This document shows positions 4,741 to 63,932 of a stretch of 64,000 bases of DNA, one piece after another. The DNA comes from Nemertoderma westbladi (lineage: Eukaryota; Animalia; Xenacoelomorpha): the NCBI GenBank assembly GCA_032718475.1, contig JAUCBJ010009060.1, positions 62,001-126,000 on the forward strand. The letters are read 5' to 3'. The notes beneath the pieces are model-generated. The model did not search any database. It was not told where the DNA came from and saw nothing but the letters and a program-made list of their open reading frames with translations. The position numbers and the translations under genes were made by a program. The number at the start of each line of letters is the position of its first letter. The first letter of the stretch is position 1.

Positions 4741-4751
4741 TGGCGCTGCGA
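4741..4751 (+). promoter_or_regulatory. Primer-binding site, probably tRNA-Ser
   Basis: TGGCGCTGCGA directly follows the LTR and is complementary to a ...TCGCAGCGCCA tRNA 3' end, which resembles tRNA-Ser. Confidence 0.75.
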
Positions 4752-4775
4752 TTATTATAAACTTACGTGACTCTC

Positions 4776-9269: not shown

Positions 9270-9302
9270 TTTAGCTGCGCCATAGGTCACCTACGCTCAG
9301 CT

Positions 9303-9312
9303 AGAAGGGGGG
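9303..9312 (+). promoter_or_regulatory. Polypurine tract
   Basis: AGAAGGGGGG immediately precedes TGTGG. Confidence 0.85.
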
Positions 9313-9598
9313 TGTGGAGATCCCTTGAGACTGACCCAATGCATGGCTTACTACGTTTAGATACTGTATGATATATTCTGGTAGTCTGTACCTTTTACCG
9401 GTACTGTTATATATATATTAGCCTGACCAATCCTGCAGTCCTGTAGTCTAATCATGACTACAGGACTACTGCTGTACTGCATGCTGGATTACAGCAATAC
9501 TGCTATTTTACCTGCTTACATGTATTATATTAATATAAACAATATTGCTTTGCTTATATCAACTTATCTTGTTTATGATCCTACATCGGATCATCACA
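9313..9598 (+). repeat. Gypsy 3' LTR, full length (286 bp, TGTG...CACA)
   Basis: Begins right after the PPT, has inverted termini TGTG/CACA, and its last 194 bp match the 5' LTR. Confidence 0.88.
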
Positions 9599-25109: not shown

Positions 25110-27119
25110 ATGGAGAAAGGGATACAAGGAGAGCCGAGATGGGGATATGATATCCAAGAGGAGGCAGCAGCGCCATTCGAAAGATTTGGAGCCAAGGACT
25201 ACACTATATTTGGTATAAAGGAATTATCGGAAAGTACAGCGAAACTCGCGAGAACTAAATATGACTCAAATGTATTAAAGAGAAGACAAAACGCATTAAA
25301 CGAAAGAATCGAAAGTTTGCGCAAAACCTTCAATGAACTTTACCCGTACGACGCTTTGTGTGATACGGGAGACATTAGCGAAGACCCCGATACTGAAATT
25401 AGTCGTTTGTATCATACCATGCAATACCTGAAGGCGCACGAACCTATGCCCGCGGTACGCAGATGAATTCGATGGAATGCATCTTTACAGACGAACTCGA
25501 GGGGACGATAGAGAAACCAAGGAAGCATTTTCAGTTTATAAACTTTATTATCAATGCGGTTCTTGTATGCGCGAACAACGAAATGCGATTCCGATGCGTT
25601 TGAATAAGGAAAATCCCGAACCGATATTGGCGAGGTGTTCGAACCATCAACAACTATGTTACCCTATGAAGGAGAACGTATCGTGGAGATTACGGATGAA
25701 TCACGGCAGACGCGCGCGCCTATCGGTCACCTTGGTGATGATTTCGAAGTAACTACTACGATCGCTGACGATCCTTTAGAGGAACTTCTTGAGATAGAAA
25801 GGAACCTCCCGAAGAAATCTCAGACGGAGATTCGACAACTTGAAGCAACAGATGCTATAGTTTGTATACAACCTTCAGAAACCTACCAACCCATAGATCC
25901 AGATGATTACGATTATAGTGTGGGAGGAAGCGCTCGACCGATTGGAGATCTTATATACGAACGAGTGTGGTACCCTGCCAATACGATGTGTGGTAAATGT
26001 GGCGTCGCTGGACATCATATGACAAAGTGCAGTGGAAAGCACATTACTACGACTCAGCTAATCTGTGGATGGTGTGGGGATCAAGGGTCTCATACCTTTT
26101 ATACTTGCTGGAGATTTATGGCTCAATGTACTTATTGCAATATAAAAGGACATCGAGCATCTGAATGCCAACTAAGAGACATACCTTATGAACACGAATC
26201 TGTAAAACTCGTGAGGAAATTATTTGATGAGTGGGAAGATTTAGCCGACGAACATGTATCGGCACAAAGAAGACGATTTCCGATGAGGGCGCATCTTGGA
26301 TTTTGGGCGGTAAATCCCCAAACGATGATGTCGGAAGGATACATCTCCGCTATGCCCCAATATGACGAACTTATCGAGGTAGTCGATATTTTGCCCCACG
26401 ACAGCGGATTCCGAGTAGTGCGCGAGTATCTACTACAGATTCACCCGGATAACAAAAACACGTGGAATTTTCAGAAAGTCGTTAATCGCATTACGTATGG
26501 TGAATTCGATCGTTTCCGAACTGAAAAGCGGAATAAAGGAGCTTGGTTAACCGTCGCATGGGCGTACCGAGCCGCGTTTTACCATAAACGTATACGAGCG
26601 AGCGTATTCGAGGAAGAGGAGGTCCTAGAGGCGACGAATATACCAGCCACTCCGGTTGCGCCGTCTGCACGTCACCCTCGGGAGGACGGACAGGGTAGGA
26701 TCATACGGGTCCAGAAAGTGGGCCAACAATTAAAGAAAATTATTAATATAGAAGAACGCAAGGGAGTTGAGCCGACCATTCGAGTTACTCGGGATACGGT
26801 ATCGCTTCCTAGAGAACCAGTAGGAGGATCGGGACATACACCAGCTGATCAACAGGGGGCGCAAGCTACTCTTGGGTCTGCGTCGTCCGCTTCTCGCGCG
26901 TTCCCAGACGTTCTACCAACTGTAGTGACAACTGATCGGTCACGAGGAATCGGTCGAGGTTTTGGGATGCCAAATAGACGAATTTGCGAGGAAATAGTCG
27001 CACCGTCTCTCAACGTCCAAACGAAACCAGTGACTCGCCCCACGAGTCCCATATCGCGAGCAAAGTCACCTGTGCGCAGTTTTCGAGGACGCGGCAGGGC
27101 TCGATCCACTAAGCGATAA
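25110..27119 (+). pseudogene. Extra ORF2 copy 1: internal 1717-bp deletion removes the exonuclease domain; zinc knuckles retained
   Basis: Junction CAACAACTA|TGTTACCC at 25656/25657 joins copy-2 positions 41193 and 42911; there is also a +1 insertion near 25459. Confidence 0.9.
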
Positions 27120-27430: not shown

Positions 27431-28117
27431 TATAAGCAGTATTTGTATTTACAGTGAAATAGAAAGTAAGAGTAGATGGAAGACTCGTGGGCCTTTCTTA
27501 TAGTTTCATTTGTAAAGTGTTATATTTTGTATTTAGAAAGTTTTATAGTCAGAAAGTTTTGTGCTTAGAAAGACTCATATTTGTAATTATTCCAAACTTA
27601 TGCAATCTACATTTAGGTACGAAAGTATTTGTAATTACTTGAATTTATGCAATATTTGAGATGCAATAGTAGATGGAAGACTCGCGAGCCTTTCTTATTG
27701 TTTTCATTTATTTGTATTTGTAATTGTTTGAATTTATGCAATATTGAGATGCAATAGATTTATATTGGTGAATTTAATTTAGATTTATATTGTACTTACT
27801 TAGTAAAGCCTTAAATACGTAAAGTTTGAATTTGTAATTATTTTTGTATCGAATCATTACGTAGAAAGGAAGTATTATTTGAAATTTAATTGTAAATATG
27901 TAAGTACGCCCTAAGTATTCTATAGTTTGATTGATTATTGGTGAAAACCGTATATTTTATGCACGATAATATCCTGTTTTCATGGAGCGGTATAGAATTA
28001 TATTCCCTAAATGCCGTGGATTTTCAAAATTTTATTTTATTCGAATTAACTTTGTAAAAGATTGCTTTGAGTCCTCATTTGTATTTGTTATATCTATTGT
28101 ACGCCTATTGGTCAAGT

Positions 28118-28204
28118 GGTTCAGTAGCTCAGTCGGTAGAGCGTTGGAAATTATATGTGTAGTAGGTATTGAGTTCGAATCCTAGTAAGTGCGAATTATT
28201 TTTT
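28118..28204 (+). ncRNA. tRNA-like Pol III cassette in LTR2
   Basis: Identical to 13062-13148. Confidence 0.7.
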
Positions 28205-28261
28205 GTGCAGAATTTCAACTCATTTAAATTAACCGCTACAAATTAATTGCATTTGTCTGTA

Positions 28262-39986: not shown

Positions 39987-40647
39987 TTAGGAGTTCACAA
40001 ATAGATTTCCACGTACCTGTACACCGTAGTAAGGACAGCGGTAGAATTCCATTGTCTTTATATGTGAACATTGAGGGTAGTACCCTTATGTGTCACATAG
40101 GAGCGGGATTTGTAGGTATAAGAAATGGAATTCTACTTGGAACTCACAATATTGAGACATTTTCGAAATTTTAGACAATCCATTTGGATTTGAAAAATTT
40201 TTAAATTTTCTCCAGTGAATAGATTTCAGGGTACAGTCGGGTGGAACTTAAAATTAGAGAAACAAGAGAGGAAGACTTGCGAGCCTTTCTTAAAAATTTT
40301 AATTAAATTTTACACGGTCTTGTTTCAATAAGTTACGTCAAAAAATAGACTCCCCTGTATTTATTTCTAATTCTTGATTGCTTATTTTCTGATAATAGTT
40401 TGGGATCAAAAAGTGAGTATTTTAGACTCACAGCCAGTTTAGCCCAAATTCGTTTTTATTTCGGCAAAAAATTTTAGATAAGAAGCAGCGTGTCATTAAA
40501 GAAACCCTAGATCTTAGGCTATGGGTAGGAGGTTAGAGCGTTGTCGAGCCCAAAGGGCAGACGAAACTCTCACGTCTCCTCACAACTAACTACAAACTCT
40601 GTTGTATTCCCTCTAGTAGTAATGATTATGTAACTACACCCCTAATT

Positions 40648-43600
40648 ATGGAGAAAGGGATACAAGGAGAGCCGAGATGGGGATATGATATCCAAGAGGA
40701 GGCAGCAGCGCCATTCGAAAGATTTGGAGCCAAGGATTATACTATATTCGGTATAAAAGAATTATCGGAAAGTACAGCGAAACTCGCGAGAACTAAATAT
40801 GACTCAAATGTATTAAAGAGAAGGCAAAACGCATTAAACGAAAGAATCGAAAGTTTGCGCCAAACCTTCAACGAACTTTACCCGTACGACACTTTATGTG
40901 ATACGGGAGATATTTGCGAAGACCCCGACACTGAAATTAGTCGTTTGTATCATACCATGCAATACCTGAAGGCGCACGAACCTATGCCCGCGGTAAGAGA
41001 TGAATTCGATGGAATGCATCTTTACAGACGAACTCGAGGGGACGATAGAGAAACCAAGGAAGCATTTTCAGTTTATAAACTTTATTATCAATGCGGTTCT
41101 TGTATGCGCGAACAACGAAATGCGATTCCAATGCGTTTGAATAAGGAAAATCCCGAACCGATATTGGCGAGGTGTTCGAACCATCAACAACTACGCTACC
41201 AGGAAGGAGGGTATCCTTTATCGAATCCATATCATTCATTTGCTATGACCGGACCAAAGGCGGGAGAAACTGTCATTTACCCACCTAAGGTTGTTGAACC
41301 CGATGTATTTGAACTTACGCTGGACGAGGCAAATCAGTCAACCCGCGAAAAGAAAGAAGCTCTTAGCCTATACAGAGCCTACAAGGCTTTCGAGAAAGGT
41401 GAGATGGAAGAATGGGGTGGAAGACTCGCGAGCCTACCTTGCCATTGGACGTCACACGATCAAACTCCAGCTAAGGAGATGACACCGGAAGTTTTCGAGA
41501 GCATAAACTTTGCTCAAAACGTTATTCAGAGACTACAGATTGCATCCCCGGAGAGGACAAGAGAAATGCAACCGTATAGTACTTCAACTACGAAACCATT
41601 GAGTACGACACTCAACTTTCCTATTAGTATACCAGTCCGACAGGATACGACGTACGAAATACCCATCGTGGATCATCCAGAAATCATTTCAAACTTGGAG
41701 TTTCTTCCTGCAGTTGTTTTCAGTGATATGAGTAAGATATATGATTTACGTAGACATATTACTCAAAAGGTCGTGTACAACGTTCCACCTCATATTCAAG
41801 ACTTCAAGGAACTGGATAGAGCTGGTGCCGATATAGCTCCGAGTAATTTGAAGGGATATTTAACCAAGACGATTCGTTTATGGATTGGAACCGGAACCTT
41901 CGAGTCGGATACAGATATTGCCGCGGATTGGCGAGGTAAGGTTATTAGCTTCGAAGATGATAAGGATATAGAGAAGATTTGGCAACCTTCGGAAGAATTG
42001 TTGGACGAATGGAATAGAACGTTTAGATCGTTTCAGGAAAATGGTTACATGTTTTACGATAACGAGGGCGGCAGTCATCAGCAGAGTTTGACTTCTAAGA
42101 CTATACAGATTAGAGCGGCGGACGGAGTCTTGCACGTTTTCAGTAGACAGAGGAGCGACAAACGAATGCCGATACCTCCAGCGAATACAAAGCGACACCA
42201 TCTTATCACCGACATAGTAAAGAAGATGGACCAAGCTTGTAATATTGACGCTAGAATGTTACCGAAGATGGTAAGAAACATGATTTTAGATAAAACTGTT
42301 GTAAAGATTGGATCAGGAGTAAGGGAGGACTTAATTAGCGACTTCGCCGGCATGACGGACAGCGATGACCGACTACCGACACCTTACGTCGACACTCGAC
42401 CTCTTATTTTGTGGTCTATAGAACAGGGATATTTTCGTGAGTATAATACTCAGAAGACTGGAACTGGATACATTTCCTACCTGTTATTCAATTGGGATTA
42501 TAAGGAAAATAAGAGAAACAAGTATATTGAAACTTATGGAGAAGGTGATACTCCAGATATGAGTGAGTTTGAATCACAGCTTAAATGGAGAGGATGCGTG
42601 TATTGGGCTATTACGTCACCTCCAAGAGCGGTCTTACAATATTATTTAGCAATAGAGTCGTCAGTGAATGTTTGCCTAATCGCCGACATTGTGTCTCGGA
42701 CTCTCAAAAGACATCCACTTTGTCTCGGAGAAGATCATACTTTCTACATGGAAGGGAGAATTCGTACCGACGTGTTTAGACAATTCCTTGAACCCTTCTA
42801 CAACTCCGACGCTCAGTGTAATGCCTTTACTCGAGCAGGATTTAGTATATTTCGAGACGTGTATCTTCGCTGTGCGGGATCTCTTATCGAAAGACCATCT
42901 ATGTTTACATTGTTACCCTATGAAGGAGAACGTATCGTGGAGATTACGGAAGAATCACGGCAGACGCGCGCGCCTATCGGTCACCTTGGTGATGATTTCG
43001 AAGTAACTACTACGATCGCTGACGATCCTTTAGAGGAACTTCTTGAGATAGAAAGGAACCTCCCGAAGAAATCTCAGATGGAGATTCGACAACTTGAAGC
43101 AACAGATGCTATAGTTTGTATACAACCTTCAGATACCTACCAACCCATAGACCCAGATGATTACGATTATAGTATGGGAGGAAGCACTCGACCGATTGGA
43201 GATCTTATATACGAACGAGTGTGGTACCCTGCCAATACGATGTGTAGTAAATGTGGCGTCGCTGGACATCATATGACAAAGTGCAGTGGAAAGCACATTA
43301 CTACGACTCAGCTAATCTGTGGATGGTGTGGGGATCAAGGGTCTCATACCTTTTATACTTGCTGGAGATTTATGGCTCAATGTACTTATTGCAATATAAA
43401 AGGACATCGAGCATCTGAATGCCAACTAAGAGACATACCTTATGAACACGAATCTGTAAAACTCGTGAGGAAGTTATTTGATGAGTGGGAAGATTTAGCC
43501 GACGAACATGTATCGGCACAAAGAAGACGGTTTCCGATGAGAGCGCATCTCGGATTTTGGGCGGTAAATCCTCAAACGATGATGTCGGAAGGATATATCT

Positions 43601-44373
43601 CCGCTATGCCCCAATATGACGAACTTATCGAGGTAGTCGATATTTTGCCCCACGACAGCGGATTCCGAGTAGTGCGCGAGTATCTACTACAGATTCACCC
43701 GGATAACAAAAACACGTGGAATTTTCAGAAAGTCGTTAATCGCATTACGTATGGTGAATTCGATCGTTTCCGAACTGAAAGGCGGAATAAAGGAGCTTGG
43801 TTAACCGTTGCATGGGCGTACCGAGCCGCGTTTTACCATAAACGTATACGAGCGAGCGTATTCGAGGAAGAAGAGGTCCTAGAGGCGACAAATATACCAG
43901 CCACTCCGGTTGCGCCGTCTGCACGTCACCCTCGGGAGGACGGACAGGGTAGGATCATACGGGTCCAGAAAGTGGGCCAACAATTAAAGAAAATTATTAA
44001 TATAGAAGAACGCAAGGGAGTTGAGCCGACCATTCGAGTTACTCGGGATACGGTATCGCTTCCTAGAGAACCAGTAGGAGGATCGGGACATACACCAGCT
44101 GATCAACAGGGGGCGCAAGCTACTCTTGGGTCTGCGTCGTCCGCTTCTCGCGCGTTCCCAGACGTTCTACCAACTGTAGTGACAACTGATCGGTCACGAG
44201 GAATCGGTCGAGGTTTTGGGATGCCAAATAGACGAATTTGCGAGGAAATAGTCGCACCGTCTCTCAACGTCCAAACGAAACCAGTGACTCGCCCCACGAG
44301 TCCCATATCGCGAGCAAAGTCACCTGTGCGCAGTTTTCGAGGACGCGGCAGGGCTCGATCCACTAAGCGATAA
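40648..44373 (+). CDS. Accessory ORF2, 1241 aa: putative Zn ribbon, DEDDy 3'-5' exonuclease-like domain, three CCHC-type zinc knuckles and a basic disordered tail
   Basis: ExoI FYDNEG (D471, E473) followed by TIQI..LHVF; ExoII LPKMVRNMILDKTVVKIGSGVRED (D561); YVDT; ExoIII-like YW...QYYLAIE (Y666, E670). Knuckles CSKCGVAGHHMTKC, CGWCGDQGSHTFYTC and CTYCNIKGHRASEC at 43243-43422. Confidence 0.85.
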   Translation: MEKGIQGEPRWGYDIQEEAAAPFERFGAKDYTIFGIKELSESTAKLARTKYDSNVLKRRQNALNERIESLRQTFNELYPYDTLCDTGDICEDPDTEISRLYHTMQYLKAHEPMPAVRDEFDGMHLYRRTRGDDRETKEAFSVYKLYYQCGSCMREQRNAIPMRLNKENPEPILARCSNHQQLRYQEGGYPLSNPYHSFAMTGPKAGETVIYPPKVVEPDVFELTLDEANQSTREKKEALSLYRAYKAFEKGEMEEWGGRLASLPCHWTSHDQTPAKEMTPEVFESINFAQNVIQRLQIASPERTREMQPYSTSTTKPLSTTLNFPISIPVRQDTTYEIPIVDHPEIISNLEFLPAVVFSDMSKIYDLRRHITQKVVYNVPPHIQDFKELDRAGADIAPSNLKGYLTKTIRLWIGTGTFESDTDIAADWRGKVISFEDDKDIEKIWQPSEELLDEWNRTFRSFQENGYMFYDNEGGSHQQSLTSKTIQIRAADGVLHVFSRQRSDKRMPIPPANTKRHHLITDIVKKMDQACNIDARMLPKMVRNMILDKTVVKIGSGVREDLISDFAGMTDSDDRLPTPYVDTRPLILWSIEQGYFREYNTQKTGTGYISYLLFNWDYKENKRNKYIETYGEGDTPDMSEFESQLKWRGCVYWAITSPPRAVLQYYLAIESSVNVCLIADIVSRTLKRHPLCLGEDHTFYMEGRIRTDVFRQFLEPFYNSDAQCNAFTRAGFSIFRDVYLRCAGSLIERPSMFTLLPYEGERIVEITEESRQTRAPIGHLGDDFEVTTTIADDPLEELLEIERNLPKKSQMEIRQLEATDAIVCIQPSDTYQPIDPDDYDYSMGGSTRPIGDLIYERVWYPANTMCSKCGVAGHHMTKCSGKHITTTQLICGWCGDQGSHTFYTCWRFMAQCTYCNIKGHRASECQLRDIPYEHESVKLVRKLFDEWEDLADEHVSAQRRRFPMRAHLGFWAVNPQTMMSEGYISAMPQYDELIEVVDILPHDSGFRVVREYLLQIHPDNKNTWNFQKVVNRITYGEFDRFRTERRNKGAWLTVAWAYRAAFYHKRIRASVFEEEEVLEATNIPATPVAPSARHPREDGQGRIIRVQKVGQQLKKIINIEERKGVEPTIRVTRDTVSLPREPVGGSGHTPADQQGAQATLGSASSASRAFPDVLPTVVTTDRSRGIGRGFGMPNRRICEEIVAPSLNVQTKPVTRPTSPISRAKSPVRSFRGRGRARSTKR

Positions 44374-45244: not shown

Positions 45245-47141
45245 TATAGAATTATATTCTCTAAATGCCGTGGATTTTCAAAATTTTATTTTATTCGAAT
45301 TAACTTTGTAAAAGATTGCTTTGAATCCTCATTTGTATTTGTTATATCGCCTATCGGTCAAGTGGTTCAGTAGCTCAGTCGGTAGAGCGTTGGAAATTAT
45401 ATGTGTAGTAGGTATTGAGTTCGAATCCTAGTAAGTGCGAATTATTTTTTGTGCAGAATTTCAACTCATTTAAATTAACCGCTACAAATTAATTGCATTT
45501 GTCTGTACCAATGAGACTGTAGTTATTTGATTGTAACCAATGTCGTGCAAGTTATATATTAGCTGGACCAATAGCTATCTTTAAAACCTTGTTAGAACCT
45601 ATAGATCAATCGAGAATTTTCTCGATTGATTGCAGCACAAATTTGGTATAAAAGGGTGCGATTTGTTCATTAGTTATCTTTCTCATCTATGCTTCTCAGA
45701 TTATCTTATCTTATCAATATTCTGTCGTGCTTAGTTTATTTCAGATTACATTGTATTATAATTATATTTTCTGTAATAAAGTCAGAATTATCGCTAATCT
45801 GCTTTTCTATCTGTTTTACCATGGATTCACTACGGTGAACAAACCTAAGGGACAGGATGACCGGCTAGAGATCGGGCCGCAGCAATGAACGGGAACATCG
45901 GGGGAATGTAGACCAGAGACAACCCGCAATACCATCTTGAGTTATTCGCCCATCGCCTGAAAGGTTAGACAGCGTTCGATCCTTGCTACCTAAGTGTAAG
46001 ACCAAAAGATCAAAAGGTAGAAGTAGTGACACGCTGTGAGCCTAAAATTACATCTTAGAGACTGTACTGTCTTGATTCAGGAAAAACCGCAGTAGACCTT
46101 CATATTCCTACGGGGGGGAGAGGGAAAGAGCGCAGGCAGATACTAGTACGCAGATAGGACGTAGGCACACCGGTACAAGGCATACACATTGGTTAGGGTG
46201 CAGCAAACTGTACGCCTAACTCTTGCTAAGTGCAGGTGTGTGTGCGACTATTTGTAGTACGACAGTGTCCATTGCATTATAACTTGTAGGCTAGGGGGGT
46301 TGCTGTGTTTTCACCTGAATTGGGATTGTACCGTTCAGGCGGTAGGGCAGTTTACAGCTAGGCGCAAATAAATTGAGGCTATTAGGGATACTAACATCTA
46401 CCGTGTCCCCGCCAACGCCCTAATAGGAAGTTACCCGGACTACCTGGGTGACTAAAATTCTAGATAAGAGCCAGGATAGCTATTAGTAACTGTACGCCTA
46501 CAGTAGTAAACTAACACATCTCTTCTTAGTATCAGGGACCTGGTACCTAAAATTGCCGAATTCTGGGCGTAGCATTAACCTTATGCCTGAATTTGAGTCC
46601 TGGAAATACGCAAGAGGGGAAGGAACCTTATCATTCGTGAGTATTGGACCTACAAGTTACAAAATTAGAATATTCGTAAAATGCACACCGTACCCAGTAA
46701 TTATATATGTGAAGGAGCAAAACTGTTTTTGACCGTTCAGAATTAACACACGCGCGTTAGAAATTATTTACACCTCAAAATATATAAAATTAACTTTCGT
46801 CCTTACTGTGCTTTGCCCGCTAGTTAGACATCTCCAAATCTCTGCCTGTACCTAGCTAGCGTCCCTTCGCCCAACCATATAAATCACACCGCGGCAAAGT
46901 ATACGAGCCCTTTAGTCCGTCAGTGAGTCAGCCTGATTTTAGGATTCGCTGCGCGGGATTTTGTTTTATCGAAGTTTGTCTGCTCGTAGACTGTTTTCTG
47001 CCTCACCGGTTATAAGAGATCGATACTGCAATATATTCGCTTACTTAGAGTTTACTGTTTTGGTGAGAAGGTCGGATTTATGATTTGATTCACAAACTTT
47101 ACAGTAGGATATTGCAGGTATTGTTACTGTCTCTTCGAATA
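45245..47141 (+). repeat. BEL LTR-containing direct repeat 3
   Basis: Homology ends at CTCTTCGAATA (47141); no TSD matches the left flank. Confidence 0.85.
45364..45450 (+). ncRNA. tRNA-like Pol III cassette in LTR3
   Basis: Identical to the other two copies. Confidence 0.7.
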
Positions 47142-47432
47142 AGTGTGCTACACGAGTGGTATGTTATAAGAACGGACAGTGTGCTGCACGAGTGGTATGT
47201 TACATGAACAAAATATAGCCACGAGGATCAGCGCATGGAAAAGTACATTGACAAAAGTACGTGGTCCCTTAAAACTGCACGCGAACTGCCTGTTCAGTAG
47301 AAATGGGTTAGATGGGAGAGTAAGCATCAGGGGCAAGTGGCTAAACTGGTTAGCGCTACTGATGAGGCCTGATAGGCTGAAACGTACGTATAGCGCTGGT
47401 TCAACCCCCGGTGACGTGCTTCCTCATTTTTT
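47142..47432 (+). mobile_element. Small retrozyme/SINE-like or Penelope-derived element with Pol III boxes and a hammerhead
   Basis: 36-bp duplication at the 5' end; A-box TGGCTAAACTGG (47338), B-box GGTTCAACCCC (47398) and T6 (47427-47432) surround a hammerhead. Confidence 0.55.
47352..47397 (+). ncRNA. Type I minimal hammerhead ribozyme
   Basis: Stem I AGCGCTA/TAGCGCT, core CTGATGA, stem II GGCCT-GAT-AGGCT, GAAA, palindromic minimal stem III ACGTACGT, cleavage triplet GTA ending at 47390. Confidence 0.88.
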
Positions 47433-47710
47433 CCATTTCTGAACGAAACCATAATATTACATCATGCTGATAAAAAACCGTATAGGGTATGTATCTTTTG
47501 CTGCAATAAAATTCCAAAATTTTATAAATATAATAATAATAATAATATAAAAAATAGTATAAAATATAATACCGATTCCGTCTTTGATAAATTGTTGATG
47601 TTAATTGCTTTCAATTATTAAAATGCAATAACAATTATTTTATAATATACTAGGCGAGTAACGAATTACATAATATTATGTATTTTAATTTATTGTCATC
47701 CTACATTATC

Positions 47711-50700
47711 CGGTTGTTATACACAACGACTATGGTCGTTATACACAAGGACTACGGTCGTTATACACAAGGACTACGGTCGTTATACACAAGGACTAAG
47801 GTCGTTATACACAAGGACTACGGTCGTTATACACAAGAACTACGGTCGTTATACACAAGGACATCGGTTGTTATACACAAGGACTACGGTTGTTATACAC
47901 AAGGACTACGGTCGTTATACACAAGGACTAAGGTCGTTATACACAAGGACTACGGTCGTTATACACAAGAACTACGGTCGTTATACACAAGGACATCGGT
48001 TGTTATACACAAGGACTACGGTTGTTATACACAAGGACTACGGTCGTTATACACAAGGACTAAGGTCGTTATACACAAGGACTACGGTCGTTATACACAA
48101 GAACTACGGTCGTTATACACAAGGACATCGGTTGTTATACACAAGGACTAAGGTCGTTATACACAAGGACTACGGTTGTTATACACAAGGACTACGGTCG
48201 TTATACACAAGGACTACGGTCGTTATACACAAGGACTACGGTCGTTATACACAAGGACTACGGTTGTTATACACAAGGACTACGGTCGTTATACACAAGG
48301 ACTACGGTTGTTATACACAAGGACTACGGTCGTTATACACAAGGACTACGGTCGTTATACACAAGGACTACGGTCGTTATACACAAGGACTACGGTTGTT
48401 ATACACAAGGACTACGGTCGTTATACACAAGGACTACGGTTGTTATACACAAGGACTACGGTTGTTATACACAAGGACTACGGTCGTTATACACAAGGAC
48501 TACGGTCGTTATACACAAGGACTACGGTCGTTATACACAAGGACTACGGTTGTTATACACAAGGACTACGGTTGTTATACACAAGGACTACGGTTGTTAT
48601 ACACAAGGACTACGGTCGTTATACACAAGGACTACGGTCGTTATACACAAGGACTACGGTCGTTATACACAAGGACTACGGTCGTTATACACAAGGACTA
48701 CGGTTGTTATACACAAGGACTATGGTTGTTATACACAAGGACTACTGTTGTTATACACAAGGACTACGGTCGTTATAAACAAGGACTACGGTCGTTATAC
48801 ACAAGGACTACGGTCGTTATACACAAGGACTACGGTCGTTATACACAAGGACTACGGTCGTTATACACAAGGACTACGGTCGTTATACACAAGGACTACG
48901 GTTGTTATACACAAGGACTACGGTTGTTATACACAAGGACTACGGTCGTTATACACAAGGACTACGGTTGTTATACACAAGGACTACGGTTGTTATACAC
49001 AAGGACATCGGTTGTTATACACAAGGACTACGGTCGTTATACACAAGGACTACGGTCGTTATACACAAGGACTACGGTTGTTATACACAAGGACTACGGT
49101 TGTTATACACAAGGACTACGGTCGTTATACACAAGGACTACGGTTGTTATACACAAGGACTACGGTTGTTATACACAAGGACTACGGTCGTTATACACAA
49201 GGACTACGGTCGTTATACACAAGGACTACGGTTGTTATACACAAGGACTACGGTCAACCAAGGACTACGGTCGTTATACACAAGGACTACGGTCGTTATA
49301 CACAAGGACTACGGTTGTTATACACAAGGACTATGGTTGTTATACACAAGGACTACGGTCGTTATACACAAGGACTACGGTCGTTATACACAAGGACTAC
49401 GGTTGTTATACACAAGGACTACGGTCGTTATACACAAGGACTACGGTCGAACCAAGGACTACGGTCGTTATACACAAGGACTACGGTCGTTATACACAAG
49501 GACTACGGTTGTTATACACAAGGACTATGGTTGTTATACACAAGGACTACGGTTGTTATACACAAGGACTACGGTCGTTATAAACAAGGACTACGGTCGT
49601 TATACACAAGGACTACGGTCGTTATACACAAGGACTACGGTCGTTATACACAAGGACTACGGTTGTTATACACAAGGACTACGGTCGTTATACACAAGGA
49701 CTACGGTTGTTATACACAAGGACTACGGTCGTTATACACAAGGACTACGGTCGTTATACACAAGGACTACGGTTGTTATACACAAGGACTACGGTTGTTA
49801 TACACAAGGACTACGGTCGTTATACACAAGGACTACGGTTGTTATACACAAGAACTACGGTCGTTATACAGTACACAAGGACTACGGTCGTTATACACAA
49901 GGACTACGGTCGTTATACACAAGGACTACGGTCGTTATACACAAGGACTCCGGTCATTATACTCAAGGACTACGGTCGTTATACAGTACACAAGGACTAC
50001 GGTTGTTATACACAAGGACTACGGTTGTTATACACAAGGACTACGGTTGTTATACACAAGGACTACGGTTGTTATACACAAGGACTACGGTTGTTATACA
50101 CAAGGACTACGGTTGTTATACACAAGGACTACGGTTGTTATACACAAGGACTACGGTTGTTATACACAAGGACTACGGTTGTTATACACAAGGACTACGG
50201 TTGTTATACACAAGGACTACGGTTGTTATACACAAGGACTACGGTTGTTATACACAAGGACTACGGTTGTTATACACAAGGACTACGGTTGTTACACAAG
50301 GACTACGGTCGTTATACACAAGGACTACGGTCGTTATACACAAGGACTCCGGTGGTTATACACAAGGACTACGGTTGTTATACACAAGGACTACGGTCGT
50401 TATACACAAGGACTACGGTCGTTATACACAAGGACTACGGTCGTTATACACAAGGACTACGGTCGTTATACACAAGGACTACGGTTGTTATACACAAGGA
50501 CTACGGTTGTTATACACAAGGACTACGGTCGTTATACACAAGGACTACGGTCGTTATACACAAGGACTACGGTGGTTATACACAAGGACTACGGTCGTTA
50601 TACACAAGGACTACGGTCGTTATACACAAGGACTACGGTTGTTATACACAAGGACTACGGTCGTTATACACAAGGACTACGGTCGTTATACACAAGGACT

Positions 50701-53700
50701 ACGGTCGTTATACACAAGGACTACGGTCGTTATACACAAGGACTACGGTTGTTATACACAAGGACTACGGTCGTTATACACAAGGACTACGGTTGTTATA
50801 CACAAGGACTACGGTCGTTATACACAAGGACTACGGTTGTTATACACAAGGACTACGGTTGTTATACACAAGGACTACGGTTGTTATACACAAGGACTAC
50901 GGTTGTTATACACAAGGACTACGGTTGTTATACACAAGGACTACGGTTGTTCACAAGGACTACGGTCGTTATACACAAGGACTACGGTCGTTATACACAA
51001 GGACTACGGTTGTTATACACAAGGACTACGGTTGTTATACACAAGGACTACGGTTGTTATACACAAGGACTACGGTCGTTATACACAAGGACTACGGTCG
51101 TTATACACAAGGACTACGGTTGTTATACACAAGGACTACGGTCGTTATACACAAGGACTACGGTCGTTATACACAAGGACTACGGTCGTTATACACAAGG
51201 ACTACGGTTGTTATACACAAGGACTACGGTTGTTCACAAGGACTACGGTCGTTATACACAAGGACTACGGTCGTTATACACAAGGACTACGGTTGTTATA
51301 CACAAGGACTACGGTCGTTATACACAAGGACTACGGTCGTTATACACAAGGACTACGGTCGTTATACACAAGGACTACGGTTGTTATACACAAGGACTAC
51401 GGTCGTTATACACAAGGACTACGGTCGTTATACACAAGGACTACGGTCGTTATACACAAGGACTACGGTCGTTATACACAAGGACTACGGTTGTTATACA
51501 CAAGGACTACGGTCGTTATACACAAGGACTACGGTCGTTATACACAAGGACTACAGTCGTTATACAGTACACAAGGACTACGGTCGTTATACACAAGGAC
51601 TACGGTTGTTATACACAAGGACTACGGTTGTTATACACAAGGACTACGGTTGTTATACACAAGGACTACGGTCGTTATACACAAGGACTACGGTTGTTAT
51701 ACACAAGGACTACGGTTGTTATACACAAGGACTACGGTCGTTATACACAAGGACTACGGTTGTTATACACAAGGACTACGGTTGTTATACACAAGGACTA
51801 CGGTCGTTATACACAAGGACTACGGTCGTTATACACAAGGACTACGGTTGTTATACACAAGGACTACGGTGTTATACACAAGGACTACGGTCGTTATACA
51901 CAAGGACTACGGTCGTTATACACAAGGACTACGGTCGTTATACACAAGGACTACGGTTGTTATACACAAGGACTACGGTTGTTATACACAAGGACTACGG
52001 TCGTTATACACAAGGACTACGGTCGTTATACACAAGGACTACGGTTGTTATACACAAGGACTACGGTCGTTATACACAAGGACTACGGTCGTTATACACA
52101 AGGACTACGGTCGTTATACACAAGGACTACGGTCGTTATACACAAGGACTACGGTCGTTATACACAAGGACTACGGTTGTTATACACAAGGACTACGGTC
52201 GTTATACACAAGGACTACGGTCGTTATACACAAGGACTACGGTCGTTATACACAAGGACTACGGTCGTTATACACAAGGACTACGGTCGTTATACACAAG
52301 GACTACGGTCGTTATACACAAGGACTACGGTTGTTATACACAAGGACTACGGTCGTTATACACAAGGACTACGGTTGTTACACAAGGACTACGGTCGTTA
52401 TACACAAGGACTACGGTCGTTATACACAAGGACTACGGTTGTTATACACAAGGACTACGGTCGTTATACACAAGGACTACGGTCGTTATACACAAGGACT
52501 ACGGTCGTTATACACAAGGACTACGGTTGTTATACACAAGGACTACGGTCGTTATACACAAGGACTACGGTTGTTATACACAAGGACTACGGTTGTTATA
52601 CACAAGGACTACGGTTGTTATACACAAGGACTACGGTTGTTATACACAAGGACTACGGTTGTTCACAAGGACTACGGTCGTTATACACAAGGACTACGGT
52701 CGTTATACACAAGGACTACGGTTGTTATACACAAGGACTACGGTTGTTATACACAAGGACTACGGTTGTTCACAAGGACTACGGTCGTTATACACAAGGA
52801 CTACGGTCGTTATACACAAGGACTACGGTGGTTATACACAAGGACTACGGTTGTTATACACAAGGACTACGGTTGTTCACAAGGACTACGGTCGTTATAC
52901 ACAAGGACTACGGTCGTTATACACAAGGACTCCGGTGGTTATACACAAGGACTACGGTCGTTATACACAAGGACTACGGTCGTTATACACAAGGACTACG
53001 GTTGTTATACACAAGGACTACGGTCGTTATACACAAGGACTACGGTCGTTATACACAAGGACTACGGTCGTTATACACAAGGACTACGGTCGTTATACAC
53101 AAGGACTACGGTTGTTACACAAGGACTACGGTCGTTATACACAAGGACTACGGTCGTTATACACAAGGACTACGGTTGTTATACACAAGGACTACGGTTG
53201 TTATACACAAGGACTACGGTTGTTATACACAAGGACTACGGTTGTTATACACAAGGACTACGGTTGTTATACACAAGGACTACGGTTGTTCACAAGGACT
53301 ACGGTCGTTATACACAAGGACTACGGTCGTTATACACAAGGACTACGGTTGTTATACACAAGGACTACGGTTGTTATACACAAGGACTACGGTTGTTCAC
53401 AAGGACTACGGTCGTTATACACAAGGACTACGGTCGTTATACACAAGGACTACGGTTGTTATACACAAGGACTACGGTCGTTATACACAAGGACTACGGT
53501 CGTTATACACAAGGACTACGGTCGTTATACACAAGGACTACGGTTGTTATACACAAGGACTACGGTTGTTCACAAGGACTACGGTCGTTATACACAAGGA
53601 CTACGGTCGTTATACACAAGGACTACGGTTGTTATACACAAGGACTACGGTCGTTATACACAAGGACTACGGTCGTTATACACAAGGACTACGGTCGTTA

Positions 53701-56700
53701 TACACAAGGACTACGGTTGTTATACACAAGGACTACGGTCGTTATACACAAGGACTACGGTCGTTATACACAAGGACTACGGTCGTTATACACAAGGACT
53801 ACGGTCGTTATACACAAGGACTACGGTTGTTATACACAAGGACTACGGTCGTTATACACAAGGACTACGGTCGTTATACACAAGGACTACAGTCGTTATA
53901 CAGTACACAAGGACTACGGTCGTTATACACAAGGACTACGGTTGTTATACACAAGGACTACGGTTGTTATACACAAGGACTACGGTTGTTATACACAAGG
54001 ACTACGGTCGTTATACACAAGGACTACGGTTGTTATACACAAGGACTACGGTTGTTATACACAAGGACTACGGTCGTTATACACAAGGACTACGGTTGTT
54101 ATACACAAGGACTACGGTTGTTATACACAAGGACTACGGTCGTTATACACAAGGACTACGGTCGTTATACACAAGGACTACGGTTGTTATACACAAGGAC
54201 ATACGGTGTTATACACAAGGACTACGGTCGTTATACACAAGGACTACGGTCGTTATACACAAGGACTACGGTCGTTATACACAAGGACTACGGTTGTTAT
54301 ACACAAGGACTACGGTTGTTATACACAAGGACTACGGTCGTTATACACAAGGACTACGGTCGTTATACACAAGGACTACGGTTGTTATACACAAGGACTA
54401 CGGTCGTTATACACAAGGACTACGGTCGTTATACACAAGGACTACGGTCGTTATACACAAGGACTACGGTCGTTATACACAAGGACTACGGTCGTTATAC
54501 ACAAGGACTACGGTTGTTATACACAAGGACTACGGTCGTTATACACAAGGACTACGGTCGTTATACACAAGGACTACGGTCGTTATACACAAGGACTACG
54601 GTCGTTATACACAAGGACTACGGTCGTTATACACAAGGACTACGGTCGTTATACACAAGGACTACGGTTGTTATACACAAGGACTACGGTCGTTATACAC
54701 AAGGACTACGGTTGTTACACAAGGACTACGGTCGTTATACACAAGGACTACGGTCGTTATACACAAGGACTACGGTTGTTATACACAAGGACTACGGTCG
54801 TTATACACAAGGACTACGGTCGTTATACACAAGGACTACGGTCGTTATACACAAGGACTACGGTTGTTATACACAAGGACTACGGTCGTTATACACAAGG
54901 ACTACGGTTGTTATACACAAGGACTACGGTTGTTATACACAAGGACTACGGTTGTTATACACAAGGACTACGGTTGTTATACACAAGGACTACGGTTGTT
55001 CACAAGGACTACGGTCGTTATACACAAGGACTACGGTTGTTATACACAAGGACTACGGTTGTTATACACAAGGACTACGGTTGTTATACACAAGGACTAC
55101 GGTTGTTCACAAGGACTACGGTCGTTATACACAAGGACTACGGTCGTTATACACAAGGACTACGGTCGTTATACACAAGGACTACGGTCGTTATACACAA
55201 GGACTACGGTTGTTATACACAAGGACTACGGTTGTTATACACAAGGACTACGGTTGTTCACAAGGACTACGGTTGTTATACACAAGGACTACGGTTGTTA
55301 TACACAAGGACTACGGTTGTTCACAAGGACTACGGTCGTTATACACAAGGACTACGGTCGTTATACACAAGGACTACGGTCGTTATACACAAGGACTACG
55401 GTCGTTATACACAAGGACTACGGTTGTTATACACAAGGACTACGGTTGTTATACACAAGGACTACGGTTGTTCACAAGGACTACGGTTGTTATACACAAG
55501 GACTACGGTTGTTATACACAAGGACTACGGTTGTTCACAAGGACTACGGTCGTTATACACAAGGACTACGGTCGTTATACACAAGGACTACGGTCGTTAT
55601 ACACAAGGACTACGGTCGTTATACACAAGGACTACGGTCGTTATACACAAGGACTACGGTCGTTATACACAAGGACTACGGTCGTTATACACAAGGACTA
55701 CGGTTGTTATACACAAGGACTACGGTTGTTATACACAAGGACTACGGTTGTTCACAAGGACTACGGTTGTTATACACAAGGACTACGGTTGTTATACACA
55801 AGGACTACGGTTGTTCACAAGGACTACGGTCGTTATACACAAGGACTACGGTCGTTATACACAAGGACTACGGTTGTTATACACAAGGACTACGGTCGTT
55901 ATACACAAGGACTACGGTCGTTATACACAAGGACTACGGTCGTTATACAGTACACAAGGACTACGGTCGTTATACACAAGGACTACGGTTGTTATACACA
56001 AGGACTACGGTTGTTATACACAAGGACTACGGTTGTTATACACAAGGACTACGGTCGTTATACACAAGGACTACGGTTGTTATACACAAGGACTACGGTT
56101 GTTATACACAAGGACTACGGTCGTTATACACAAGGACTACGGTTGTTATACACAAGGACTACGGTTGTTATACACAAGGACTACGGTCGTTATACACAAG
56201 GACTACGGTCGTTATACACAAGGACTACGGTTGTTATACACAAGGACTACGGTGTTATACACAAGGACTACGGTCGTTATACACAAGGACTACGGTCGTT
56301 ATACACAAGGACTACGGTCGTTATACACAAGGACTACGGTTGTTATACACAAGGACTACGGTTGTTATACACAAGGACTACGGTCGTTATACACAAGGAC
56401 TACGGTCGTTATACACAAGGACTACGGTTGTTATACACAAGGACTACGGTCGTTATACACAAGGACTACGGTCGTTATACACAAGGACTACGGTCGTTAT
56501 ACACAAGGACTACGGTCGTTATACACAAGGACTACGGTCGTTATACACAAGGACTACGGTTGTTATACACAAGGACTACGGTCGTTATACACAAGGACTA
56601 CGGTCGTTATACACAAGGACTACGGTCGTTATACACAAGGACTACGGTCGTTATACACAAGGACTACGGTCGTTATACACAAGGACTACGGTCGTTATAC

Positions 56701-59329
56701 ACAAGGACTACGGTTGTTATACACAAGGACTACGGTCGTTATACACAAGGACTACGGTTGTTCACAAGGACTACGGTCGTTATACACAAGGACTACGGTC
56801 GTTATACACAAGGACTACGGTTGTTATACACAAGGACTACGGTCGTTATACACAAGGACTACGGTCGTTATACACAAGGACTACGGTCGTTATACACAAG
56901 GACTACGGTTGTTATACACAAGGACTACGGTCGTTATACACAATGACTACGGTTGTTATACACAAGGACTACGGTTGTTATACACAAGGACTACGGTTGT
57001 TATACACAAGGACTACGGTTGTTATACACAAGGACTACGGTTGTTCACAAGGACTACGGTCGTTATACACAAGGACTACGGTTGTTATACACAAGGACTA
57101 CGGTTGTTATACACAAGGACTACGGTTGTTATACACAAGGACTACGGTTGTTCACAAGGACTACGGTCGTTATACACAAGGACTACGGTCGTTATACACA
57201 AGGACTACGGTTGTTATACACAAGGACTACGGTTGTTATACACAAGGACTACGGTTGTTCACAAGGACTACGGTCGTTATACACAAGGACTACGGTCGTT
57301 ATACACAAGGACTACGGTTGTTATACACAAGGACTACGGTCGTTATACACAAGGACTACGGTCGTTATACACAAGGACTACGGTCGTTATACACAAGGAC
57401 TACGGTTGTTATACACAAGGACTACGGTTGTTCACAAGGACTACGGTCGTTATACACAAGGACTACGGTCGTTATACACAAGGACTACGGTTGTTATACA
57501 CAAGGACTACGGTCGTTATACACAAGGACTACGGTCGTTATACACAAGGACTACGGTCGTTATACACAAGGACTACGGTTGTTATACACAAGGACTACGG
57601 TCGTTATACACAAGGACTACGGTCGTTATACACAAGGACTACGGTCGTTATACACAAGGACTACGGTCGTTATACACAAGGACTACGGTTGTTATACACA
57701 AGGACTACGGTCGTTATACACAAGGACTACGGTCGTTATACACAAGGACTACAGTCGTTATACAGTACACAAGGACTACGGTCGTTATACACAAGGACTA
57801 CGGTTGTTATACACAAGGACTACGGTTGTTATACACAAGGACTACGGTTGTTATACACAAGGACTACGGTCGTTATACACAAGGACTACGGTTGTTATAC
57901 ACAAGGACTACGGTTGTTATACACAAGGACTACGGTCGTTATACACAAGGACTACGGTTGTTATACACAAGGACTACGGTTGTTATACACAAGGACTACG
58001 GTCGTTATACACAAGGACTACGGTCGTTATACACAAGGACTACGGTTGTTATACACAAGGACATCGGTGTTATACACAAGGACTACGGTCGTTATACACA
58101 AGGACTACGGTCGTTATACACAAGGACTACGGTCGTTATACACAAGGACTACGGTTGTTATACACAAGGACTACGGTTGTTATACACAAGGACTACGGTC
58201 GTTATACACAAGGACTACGGTCGTTATACACAAGGACTACGGTTGTTATACACAAGGACTACGGTCGTTATACACAAGGACTACGGTCGTTATACACAAG
58301 GACTACGGTCGTTATACACAAGGACTACGGTCGTTATACACAAGGACTACGGTCGTTATACACAAGGACTACGGTTGTTATACACAAGGACTACGGTCGT
58401 TATACACAAGGACTACGGTCGTTATACACAAGGACTACGGTCGTTATACACAAGGACTACGGTCGTTATACACAAGGACTACGGTCGTTATACACAAGGA
58501 CTACGGTCGTTATACACAAGGACTACGGTTGTTATACACAAGGACTACGGTCGTTATACACAAGGACTACGGTTGTTCACAAGGACTACGGTCGTTATAC
58601 ACAAGGACTACGGTCGTTATACACAAGGACTACGGTTGTTATACACAAGGACTACGGTCGTTATACACAAGGACTACGGTCGTTATACACAAGGACTACG
58701 GTCGTTATACACAAGGACTACGGTTGTTATACACAAGGACTACGGTCGTTATACACAATGACTACGGTTGTTATACACAAGGACTACGGTTGTTATACAC
58801 AAGGACTACGGTTGTTATACACAAGGACTACGGTTGTTATACACAAGGACTACGGTTGTTCACAAGGACTACGGTCGTTATACACAAGGACTACGGTTGT
58901 TATACACAAGGACTACGGTTGTTATACACAAGGACTACGGTTGTTATACACAAGGACTACGGTTGTTCACAAGGACTACGGTCGTTATACACAAGGACTA
59001 CGGTCGTTATACACAAGGACTACGGTCGTTATACACAAGGACTACGGTCGTTATACACAAGGACTACGGTTGTTATACACAAGGACTACGGTTGTTATAC
59101 ACAAGGACTACGGTTGTTCACAAGGACTACGGTTGTTATACACAAGGACTACGGTTGTTATACACAAGGACTACGGTTGTTCACAAGGACTACGGTCGTT
59201 ATACACAAGGACTACGGTCGTTATACACAAGGACTACGGTCGTTATACACAAGGACTACGGTCGTTATACACAAGGACTACGGTTGTTATACACAAGGAC
59301 TACGGTTGTTATACACAAGGACTACGGTT
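47711..59329. repeat. 22-bp satellite array (GTTATACACAAGGACTACGGTY), roughly 530 units
   Basis: 11.6 kb of near-perfect units with a C/T dimorphism and rare -3, -2, -1 and +5 variants. Confidence 0.99.
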
Positions 59330-60489: not shown

Positions 60490-60685
60490 TACTACGACTA
60501 CCACTACTAAGTCGAGCGAGCTCTGACAGTGGAAATGAGGTTCTTTCAGGCTCCCCTATTCTCCACAACATTACCACATTTCTTCAGTGTCCAGGTCTCA
60601 CCCCCGTATAAAAGTACACTTTCCACTGTGGCTCTAAAGAACATGGTCTTCCGGTGCGGGATAGGTCTGCGTCTGATTTACAGAT
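60490..60685 (-). pseudogene. RTE-type LINE remnant (post-RT region) with (TAG)n-like tail
   Basis: The minus strand translates to KTMFFRATVESVLLYGGETWTL. Confidence 0.8.
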
Positions 60686-60702
60686 GGTATCCATGTTTTG
60701 AT

Positions 60703-61140
60703 ATACTACTACTACGACTACGCTCGGCATGCTGCATTGCAGCTGCATTATATATATATTACATATATGTTATGAATGTTGTGCCGGCTTGTCAAATTTG
60801 CGCCGCCACAACTCCCTATCCCCATGACATTTGCGAGATCATCCGCATCTTAAAGGCCAGAGTCCTTGGAAGTCGTCAACGTTCTTTAGTTGCCTATATC
60901 GATCGTGGTCAAGATTCTATTATTAACATTAAATGTCATGAATTCGGTCTTGGAACATTTATATGTAATCCAACCTCCTAAGAAGCCCTTTCGACTTTGT
61001 TCAGTAAAATTGTGCATCTGCTAGCGTATTAGAAAGCAGGTCGATGTCATCCGCAAAGTCGGAGTATGTGACTGTAGTTGCCGGATATCCGCTACTTCTA
61101 CATTTTTTGTAGTGTAAACCCAAGACCTTCTCCATGTAAA
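60703..61140 (-). pseudogene. RTE-type LINE remnant: RT catalytic region joined to the 3' end
   Basis: Minus strand gives YPATTVTYSDFADDIDLLSNTL...EVGLHIN..KTEFM, then ...GCAGCTGCAATGCAGCATGCC and a TAG-repeat tail. Confidence 0.8.
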
Positions 61141-62422: not shown

Positions 62423-62968
62423 TTTAACGCTGCAGTAATATGCTGGTTGACAAGATTGTTAAGAAACTACATATTTCCCATGTGCTGTAGATTACAAATG
62501 GACAAATCTAAAGTAAATGAATGTGTAAGGTTATTACAAACGCTAATGATACATTATCACCATTTCTACATTTCGTGTGACAGGTAATAAGGCATCAGTG
62601 TCACTTTGGAATTGAACCAGAGACTCACTTTGATTAATGTTATGCCATGTTTTTGTCGATGGGCATCTCGCCTTTATGTGGTTTGAATAAATTCGGCGAC
62701 TTACAGTCAATAAACACCCGCGAGACTATTGATTTTATTAAAAATATCATGGGCCGAATCGCCCATAATTACGCATTCAATTCAGCAACTGGAGGTAAAT
62801 TAGTTGATTACTTGGGCCAATTGTTTGTTAATCTCCAAAACCCAGATCGCCGGTGTAGCAAATTAGGGGATGGGGACAAAATTCGGGGTCAGATAGGGGG
62901 TTGGGGAGGGGGGGGGGGGGGGGGGGACTCAGCGCAAACAAAACGCATGAAAAATCCAACTGTGTATA

Positions 62969-63932
62969 ACTAGGGCCTACACTAACTGGAACTAGTGCCT
63001 ACACTAACAAGATCTAGGGCCTACACAAACTAGAACTAGGGCCTACACTAACTGGAACTAGTGCCTACACTAACTAGATCTAGTGCCTACACTAACTAGA
63101 TCTAGGGCCTACACTAACTAGAACTAGTGCCTACACTATCTAGATCTAGGGCCTACACAAACTAGAACTAGGGCCTACACTAACTGGAACGAGTGCCTAC
63201 ACTAACTAGATCTAGGGCCTACACTAACTAGATCTAGGGCCTACACTAACTAGATCTAGGGCCTACACAAACTAGAACTAGGGCCTACACTAACTGGAAC
63301 TAGTGCCTACACTAACTAGATCTAGGGCCTACACTAACTAGAACTAGTGCCTACACTAACTAGATCTAGGGCCTACACAAACTAGAACTAGGGTCTACAC
63401 TAACTGGAACTAGTGCCTACACTAACTAGATCTAGGGCCTACACTAACTAGATCTAGGGCCTACACAAACTAGAACTAGGGCCTACACTAACTGGAACTA
63501 GTGCCTACACTAACTAGATCTAGTGCCTACACTAACTAGATCTAGGGCCTACACTAACTAGAACTAGTGCCGACACTAACTAGATCTAGAACCTACACAA
63601 ACTAGGGCCTACACTAACTGGAACTAGTGCCTACACTAACTAGATCTAGGGCCTACAATAACTAGATCTAGGGCCTACACAAACTAGAACTAGGGCCTAC
63701 ACTAACTGGAACTAGTGCCTACACTAACTAGATCTAGGGCCTACACTAACTAGATCTAGGGCCTACACTAACTAGAACTAAGGCCTACACTAACTGGAAC
63801 TAGTGCCTACACTAACTAGAGTTAGTGCCTACACTAACTAGATCTAGGGCCTACACTAACTAGAACTAGGGCCTTCACTAACTAGATCTAGGGCCTACAC
63901 AAACTAGAACTAGGGCCTACACTAACTAGAAC
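62969..63932. repeat. 22-bp minisatellite (TAGKGCCTACACWAACTRGAWC), about 44 units
   Basis: Direct inspection; unit variants recur in short higher-order patterns. Confidence 0.95.

Follow-up and report, generated by a model that had tools for sequence, protein, structure and literature searches.

The window, the whole stretch of 64,000 nucleotides of Nemertoderma westbladi DNA that was analyzed, contains a complete type I hammerhead on the plus strand (47352 to 47397), set between a Pol III A box and a B box. Helix I (47352 to 47358 with 47391 to 47397) has seven Watson-Crick pairs; it is followed by the core segment CTGATGA (47359 to 47365), helix II (47366 to 47378), and the core segment GAAA (47379 to 47382). 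Helix III is made by the 8-base palindrome ACGTACGT (47382 to 47389), which is predicted to act as the intermolecular helix III of a double hammerhead. From the hammerhead consensus, and with weak hints from copies that start at 47388 to 47391, cleavage is predicted between 47390 and 47391, after the triplet GUA (GTA in the DNA). The motif therefore combines a CUGANGA and GAAA core, an NUH triplet, three helices, and an open helix I. A sequence-only reading of this DNA had proposed a complete type I core with a 7-bp stem I, a minimal palindromic stem III, and, taken together, a dimer-type hammerhead set inside a Pol III promoter of tRNA origin; each of these parts lies where it had been placed.

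The same reading had brought up the minimal hammerheads of Penelope-like elements (PLEs), and here the geometry differs. The helix lengths are those of canonical metazoan hammerheads (helix I of ∼6 to 7 bp, helix II of 4 to 5 bp, and helix III of 1 to 2 bp plus a palindromic loop), and the traits of the PLE minimal form (min-HHR), namely, a long helix II, a short helix I, and an extra base 5′ of helix II, are not seen in the motif. In Schistosoma mansoni, PLE min-HHRs are described with a helix II of 7 to 8 bp and a helix I of 4 to 5 bp (PMC4209133). The motif has U1.7 (47397), which is paired within the 7-bp helix I, and an A (47374) as the last base of loop II; a contact between U1.7 and the terminal A of loop II has been described for the schistosome ribozyme (PMC11875169).

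A sequence-only hammerhead pattern is nonsignificant by itself, being matched in 57 of 100 shuffles, but a structural descriptor, which gave a single match in the window, matched nowhere in 52-kb sequences simulated 300 times with an order-3 Markov model. The proposed Infernal search with Rfam Hammerhead_1 (RF00163) had a divided outcome: a 191-base input aligned to the full model with 21.6 bits and an E value of 0.0042, but this score lies below the gathering score of 34, and no match to a hammerhead was returned when 5 kb or the whole window served as input. There is no second copy of the element elsewhere in the window.

The ribozyme occupies the position of a tRNA anticodon arm. The A box (47338 to 47349, plus strand) forms, together with 47350 to 47354, a D-arm-like hairpin whose stem, GCTAA/TTAGC (47340 to 47354), overlaps stem I by 3 nt, and the B box (47398 to 47408, plus strand) abuts stem I and lies in the loop of a T-arm-like hairpin (47395 to 47412). 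Remnants of the D arm and the T arm flank helix I, suggesting that the ribozyme has taken the place of both the anticodon arm and the variable arm; the spacer between the boxes is 48 nt. A terminator-like run for Pol III, T6, follows at 47427 to 47432 on the plus strand, inside the mobile unit described below. The positions of the boxes and T6 define a predicted plus-strand Pol III transcript from the tRNA-like +1 to T6 (47330 to 47432), and when the A-box T is taken as tRNA position 8, tRNA position 1 falls at 47331. Under the patterns used, this pair of boxes is the sole such set in the window, and the chance of finding both boxes no more than 30 nt from a fixed motif is ∼1 × 10^-6. Thus, the arrangement of A box, B box, and T6 around a ribozyme in the anticodon-arm position, also part of the sequence-only reading, stands. 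Neither ARAGORN nor Rfam calls a tRNA at the element, so we infer its tRNA origin from the boxes and arms.

The surrounding animal DNA is rich in repeats: it contains a satellite with a 22-base unit, a tandem pair of BEL/Pao elements, and one Gypsy element. The latter (4547 to 9598) is a very recent insertion, as its 194-base LTRs are identical and its 1,502-aa reading frame (ORF) is open; the named relatives of its protein are crustacean, with ∼50% identity, and are not diagnostic of the host group. The BEL/Pao elements (12935 to 47141) have a central LTR of ∼1.9 kb in common. Their LTRs end in TAT...ATA instead of TG...CA and are not directly followed by a TGG primer site, and the array is without a flanking target duplication. 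An extra 3′ ORF of 1,278 aa (40537 to 44373, and also 25608 to 27119) has no Pfam match and a weak Atlas lead (0.82). All three BEL/Pao LTRs contain a tRNA-derived, Pol III-like cassette, identical in each (13061 to 13150, 28117 to 28206, and 45363 to 45452), in which an A box (at 13069, 28125, or 45371) is followed ∼45 bases on by a B-box-like motif and then by T6. ARAGORN makes no call in the cassette, which resembles Helenus but is found in an element with gag-pol ORFs. The satellite (47711 to 59328; 531 copies with 95% matches) begins 250 bases behind the hammerhead element, and a second 22-base array occupies 62968 to 63932. Near the two ends of the window lie an ORF of the AP-endonuclease type (3006 to 3818) and a minus-strand ORF (60511 to 60981) that resembles the 3′ fragment of a LINE and has short triplet repeats next to it.

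The neighboring BEL/Pao LTR (45245 to 47141, plus strand) lies outside the hammerhead element: the LTR self-alignment ends at 47141, and loose contig ends cluster at 47141 to 47144. We therefore rejected a link between the two as unrelated. The element had been thought to abut the BEL end directly, but a gap of 142 to 188 bases of low-copy DNA separates them, the family starting at ∼47284 in its long form and at 47330 in its short form. Between LTR and element, the low-copy stretch from 47142 to 47247 contains a short direct duplication, and its depth is 2- to 11-fold that of the flank in two (X1 and X2) of the four sequencing runs used.

Copies of the element were followed in the contigs of these four DNA-type sequencing runs (X1 to X4), which come from three studies. 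They are the ones that contain the stretch among six runs listed, and no RNA run was listed as containing it. Relative to the unique 3′ flank, the summed contig depth over 47336 to 47445 was 6,800- to 12,500-fold in X1 and 4,400- to 10,400-fold in X2; since overlapping contigs inflate this sum and it gives no exact copy number, it is safest read as thousands of copies. In X2, 1,857 contigs fell on 179 bases, 1,585 of them at an identity of at least 90%. Family copies that conserve the core, which the sequence-only reading had proposed to look for, thus exist at thousands of times the flank depth. The family depth drops at 47329 to 47331 and again at 47461 to 47465, delimiting a short form of the mobile unit (47330 to 47465, plus strand; ∼135 bp) that makes up ∼99% of the family depth. 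The contigs listed run on into hundreds of bases of unrelated flank, as expected of dispersed copies. No joint was head to tail among the nine in X2 or among the 15 listed of 24 joints in all four runs, with which arrays with long spacers remain compatible. Together, the depth limits, the unrelated flanks, and the lack of head-to-tail joints indicate that the unit starts at tRNA +1, is monomeric, and extends ∼30 bases past T6. A search for tandem arrays had been proposed, but no joint among those listed supports them; the previously drawn limits of 47330 to 47432 omit both the leader of the long form and the ∼30 bases of tail that follow T6. The element is a young, dispersed, noncoding repeat family with a complete hammerhead.

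The tail past T6 (47433 to 47465, plus strand) is AC-rich (A+C, 0.64) and nonrepetitive, and it is a candidate region for the start of reverse transcription (RT). Its depth equals that just before T6. Loose ends in the tail, next to mixed AT-rich flanks, are found at 47444 and at 47461 to 47465, ∼20 bases apart, of which 47444 may be a sequence variant. PLE copies can have an optional tail of 30 to 40 bases owing to two RT start sites, to which the two clusters of 3′ ends could correspond. The 3′ loose ends are AT-rich, with an agreement of 0.45 to 0.54 in X1 to X3, and their consensus has no simple repeat, poly(A), or microsatellite tail. At the window copy, no target-site duplication was found, the best match being 5 bases, at chance level; the direct repeat at 47325 to 47329 and 47460 to 47464 was rejected as a duplication, as the search gave three such matches and the second half of this one lies within the family tail. 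These observations bear on whether the element is a tRNA short interspersed element (SINE) mobilized by a LINE, with a captured hammerhead as passenger or brake and a tail that serves as a LINE-derived recognition sequence. Its A and B boxes do occupy SINE positions (PMC8969392), the inversions described below are compatible with twin priming, and the ORF at 3006 to 3818 is of the LINE endonuclease type. However, the lack of a simple-repeat tail, the missing target duplication at the window copy, and the internal T6 all argue against a SINE, an origin that we consider rather improbable.

Past 47465, the first 6 letters of the loose ends are common to all four runs, suggesting that the family tail is longer than that of the window copy. 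This would be in keeping with a unit that represents the 5′ pseudo-LTR (pLTR) end of a coding PLE with a tRNA-type promoter, the short copies being cDNAs that extend from the first RT start to the transcription start. Both fixed ends would then be explained without any read-through of T6, and a hammerhead together with an RT start at the pLTR-ORF junction has been described for an anole PLE (PMC11167929). Yet T6 would halt Pol III ahead of any ORF; the frame opened by the core ATG is 26 codons long, so there is no ORF here; the overall agreement past 47465 is just 0.45 to 0.67; and the helix lengths are canonical, not those reported for min-HHRs (PMC4209133). A pLTR origin appears unlikely to us.

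Sequence variation was examined most closely in X2, where 15 sites vary at a level of at least 1%. The hammerhead holds four: the free N7 (47363), a base of loop II (47372), the base of helix II (47378), and a position in loop III (47386), where the variant still pairs in the dimer through wobble. No X2 variant at this level disrupts the core or stem I, and none at or above 1% changes the length of T6. The 36 constrained positions among 132 hold 1 of the 15 variable sites (P = 0.046), and none of the 15 breaks a constrained position (P = 0.006, post hoc); the family is young, so low variation is little informative, and four variable sites outside the hammerhead are CpG changes close to the 1% threshold. 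The A box is also kept: G is the majority base at 47343 (>99%), and 58% of the X2 depth has G at 47345. As to the first pair of stem II, earlier described as G-U, this is true of the window copy but not of the family: position 47378 is C, giving the canonical G10.1-C11.1 pair, in 72% of the X2 depth and in 60 to 88% across the four runs, which leaves G-U in the minority. Damaged variants do occur in X4, namely, 47361 G>A (5.8%), 47375 G>A (14%), and 47392 A>T (20%; one contig), these core and helix variants at 6 to 20% of depth resting on one to three contigs; deletions of 8 and 9 bases at helix III are each found in single contigs. One 145-base X4 contig with a depth of 1,108 belongs to a distinct subfamily, with a change at 47392 and a 4-base insertion behind 47357 that possibly makes a bulged, compensated helix I; a change at 47411 would add a T-stem pair.

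Predicted folds favor action in pairs. In the monomer, helices I and II form (0.59 to 1.0), helix III hardly does (0.01), and the core is mispaired; the active fold costs 2.5 kcal/mol, and the overall folding energy is ordinary (z = −0.07). With two copies, the best unconstrained fold is a strand-swapped double hammerhead at all three lengths tried, and the palindrome (47382 to 47389) pairs with a probability of 0.77 to 0.84 in the dimer ensemble. Shuffled sequences reach the energy gain from dimerization, −9.6 kcal/mol, in 85 of 200 cases, so that only the shape of the dimer is informative. Cleavage is thus predicted to occur mainly when two transcripts pair, and as there is no tandem partner, dimers would need two separate transcripts. 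An axolotl hammerhead with a similar 2-bp helix III is reported to reach 22% cleavage as a monomer and to cleave better as a dimer (PMC7229834).

Signs of cutting were sought in the contig ends. Loose ends lie before 47390 in X2 (11 contigs) and before 47388 in X3 (7 contigs) and X4 (1 contig), a joint at 47391 is found in two studies, and the X2 depth steps from 301,822 to 346,468 at 47390. These observations hint weakly at cutting in vivo; the majority sequence of the X2 loose ends is like a diverged 5′ half, and older subfamilies may therefore explain them. A joint of 47358 to 47391 was discarded as cleavage evidence, since stem I is self-complementary and fold-back there explains the joint.

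The window copy is of the long form, which accounts for ∼1% of the family depth (35 to 77 times the flank), with 25 to 38 contigs that include the leader. This leader (47284 to 47329, plus strand) is a degenerate inverted repeat of 47412 to 47444. Its complementarity to the 3′ part is equaled in 0.6 to 0.8% of controls, and 6 of 1,000 shuffles pair as strongly; the long-form fold is mildly stable (z = −1.8; 26 of 500 shuffles are equally good). The leader may be an older, rod-folded version of the element or an ancient inverted end amplified with the unit. The majority sequence of the leader loose ends in other copies shows a change complementary to that of the tail variant at 47436.

Pairing of leader and tail yields a rod, as would be expected if the long form were a rod-folded circle and the element a retrozyme of the Sm-alpha type, in which hidden tandem arrays give rise to self-cleaved monomers circularized by RtcB and dispersed copies are by-products. 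The canonical metazoan geometry (PMC4209133; PMC7229834), the loose ends before 47388 to 47390, and the joint at 47391 are in line with such a cycle. It is difficult to reconcile, however, with X2 joints of which none is head to tail, with copies that end at +1 and in the tail and not at the cut, with a long-form fold that is only mildly stable, and with an internal terminator that would block Pol III multimers; a retrozyme cycle thus seems very improbable. The sub-terminal inverted repeats of the long form could instead speak for a Pol III small-RNA gene that moves with its terminator as DNA, either as a Helitron-type element or as a solo LTR of a Helenus-like TRIM; tRNA boxes are present in Helenus LTRs (PMC10886601), and movement as DNA would explain why terminator and tail travel together. 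On the other hand, ∼99% of the depth is without the leader and starts at tRNA +1, the 3′ ends are staggered, and there is no target duplication of 4 to 6 bases, no TG start in the short form, and no GC-rich 3′ hairpin. The inversions joined at their 5′ ends likewise suggest reverse transcription, and we see only a slim chance for transfer as DNA.

These inversions comprise 10 distinct opposite-strand joints, in 3 of which the short side stops precisely at 47462 or 47465. Each is represented by one contig per run, aligned at 80% likeness, and 6 of the 10 start in the leader, whose complementarity to the tail may mislead the alignment of joints starting there. The 5′ end at +1 and the opposite-strand joints point to reverse transcription. 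Twin priming by LINEs is one source of inverted joints, and the joint lengths fit it and PLE-type inversion equally. Staggered 3′ ends, as seen among the copies, are a Penelope-like trait, and inverted, 5′-truncated copies, in which both 3′ ends face outward, are another (10.1101/2021.04.23.441226). An anole PLE is described to prime internally in an AC-rich stem-loop, to target AT-rich DNA, and to insert uncut RNA (PMC11167929). The hammerhead, the AT-rich flanks, the AC-rich tail, and the lack of both a simple-repeat tail and a target duplication favor a PLE helper, whereas the AP-endonuclease ORF in the window suggests that LINE-type helpers exist in the genome and counts against it. Because the copies span the cut site, the main template would be uncut or rejoined RNA.

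We propose that the family is a noncoding Pol III retroelement whose uncut RNA is copied by a Penelope-like helper, through the helper's reverse transcriptase and endonuclease; we give this model about an even chance of being right. Pol III would start at ∼47330, and T6 would end most transcripts while a minority reads through into the tail. A lone transcript is predicted to cut poorly with its core misfolded; once the palindrome pairs two transcripts, a double hammerhead could form and cut after 47390, parting the A-box half from the B-box half. The helper may nick AT-rich DNA and begin cDNA synthesis within the AC-rich tail, and uncut read-through RNA would be copied back to +1, giving promoter-competent monomers that are sometimes inverted at the 5′ end. 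The hammerhead would then serve as a concentration-dependent brake and a helper-binding fold and not as a releaser of monomers from multimers. The weak point of read-through is that the tail lies past T6, so that the template must cross the terminator; nearly all copies retain T6 though the tail behind it is also copied, which the model does not predict.

In a more speculative extension, the element would be a self-splitting tRNA mimic that parasitizes Penelope elements, with strand-swapped transcripts cut at the anticodon position; the resulting 2′,3′-cyclic phosphate and 5′-OH ends would be held together like the halves of a spliced tRNA. Cutting would then cap the element's own RNA level, and joining of swapped halves by RtcB would recombine copies at the RNA stage. 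We regard this extension as quite improbable.

The ribozyme of known hammerhead retroelements serves to release monomers from tandem transcripts. In this family, copies are single and include the cut site, and cutting would ruin the template that bears the promoter; even so, both core and palindrome are kept across the common variants. The 135-base element therefore offers a direct test of what a hammerhead does in Penelope-type transposition, be it as a brake, a protein-binding fold, or a processing signal, and also of the proposal that PLEs mobilize short noncoding elements.

Among known systems, Schistosoma Sm-alpha, named in the sequence-only reading, is the right comparison. Sm-alpha and Sj-alpha likewise combine a tRNA-derived Pol III promoter with a type I hammerhead in a high-copy, noncoding repeat (PMC2770079, PMC6765202), and the best Rfam match of our element is Hammerhead_1, the end of loop II being shared. 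As described, Sm-alpha has a full tRNA with promoter and hammerhead in series, spans ∼335 bp, is often tandem, and gives multimeric transcripts (PMC6765202, PMC2770079, PMC8490949, PMC4918200). By comparison with these later descriptions, the element studied here has its ribozyme inside the promoter, which a cut would split, and is ∼135 bp long and monomeric with an internal T6. The non-LTR retrozymes of coral, mussel, and axolotl share with it a canonical type I hammerhead; its 2-bp helix III and tetraloop are like those of axolotl HHR_Amex2, which cuts better as a dimer, and PLEs have been proposed as retrozyme helpers (PMC7229834). Unlike the 150- to 450-bp tandem repeats described there as sources of circular RNA (PMC7229834), our family has tRNA boxes and no tandem joint; Pol III and SINE terms are absent from the text of that metazoan retrozyme paper. 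Pattern matches that might have been relatives, 11 in viral contigs and 4 in metagenome contigs, were dismissed as chance, as none of the 15 forms a stem I of more than 1 pair.

The likeness to PLE pLTR hammerheads lies in the palindromic helix III, AT-rich flanks, an AC-rich 3′ end, and possibly inverted copies (PMC4209133; PMC11167929), and uncut PLE RNA is reported to be an insertion substrate in vitro (PMC11167929). In contrast to PLEs, the element is without an ORF and has canonical helix lengths and a tRNA-type promoter with a terminator. It resembles tRNA-derived SINEs (PMC8969392) in its size, in an A box near the 5′ end followed by a B box, and in its dispersed, high-copy monomers, but the box spacer, described as 30 to 35 nt in SINEs, is longer here and filled by the ribozyme, and the terminator is inside the unit. 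While the element would work like the Sm-alpha/retrozyme type, it shows neither tandem joints nor an in-series layout, and its window copy shows neither the tail nor the target duplication of a SINE. Hammerheads placed by design between the two boxes of a tRNA, so that Pol III expresses them, are engineered enzymes that act in trans, whereas the element is natural and includes its own cleavage site. Searches of an open-access paper library listed no natural hammerhead between A and B boxes, and the supplements of PMC7229834, PMC4918200, and PMC4209133 could show similar layouts. The union of a tRNA promoter and a hammerhead is already known from Schistosoma Sm-alpha; what appears to be new, among the papers searched, is the nesting of one in the other within a monomeric element.
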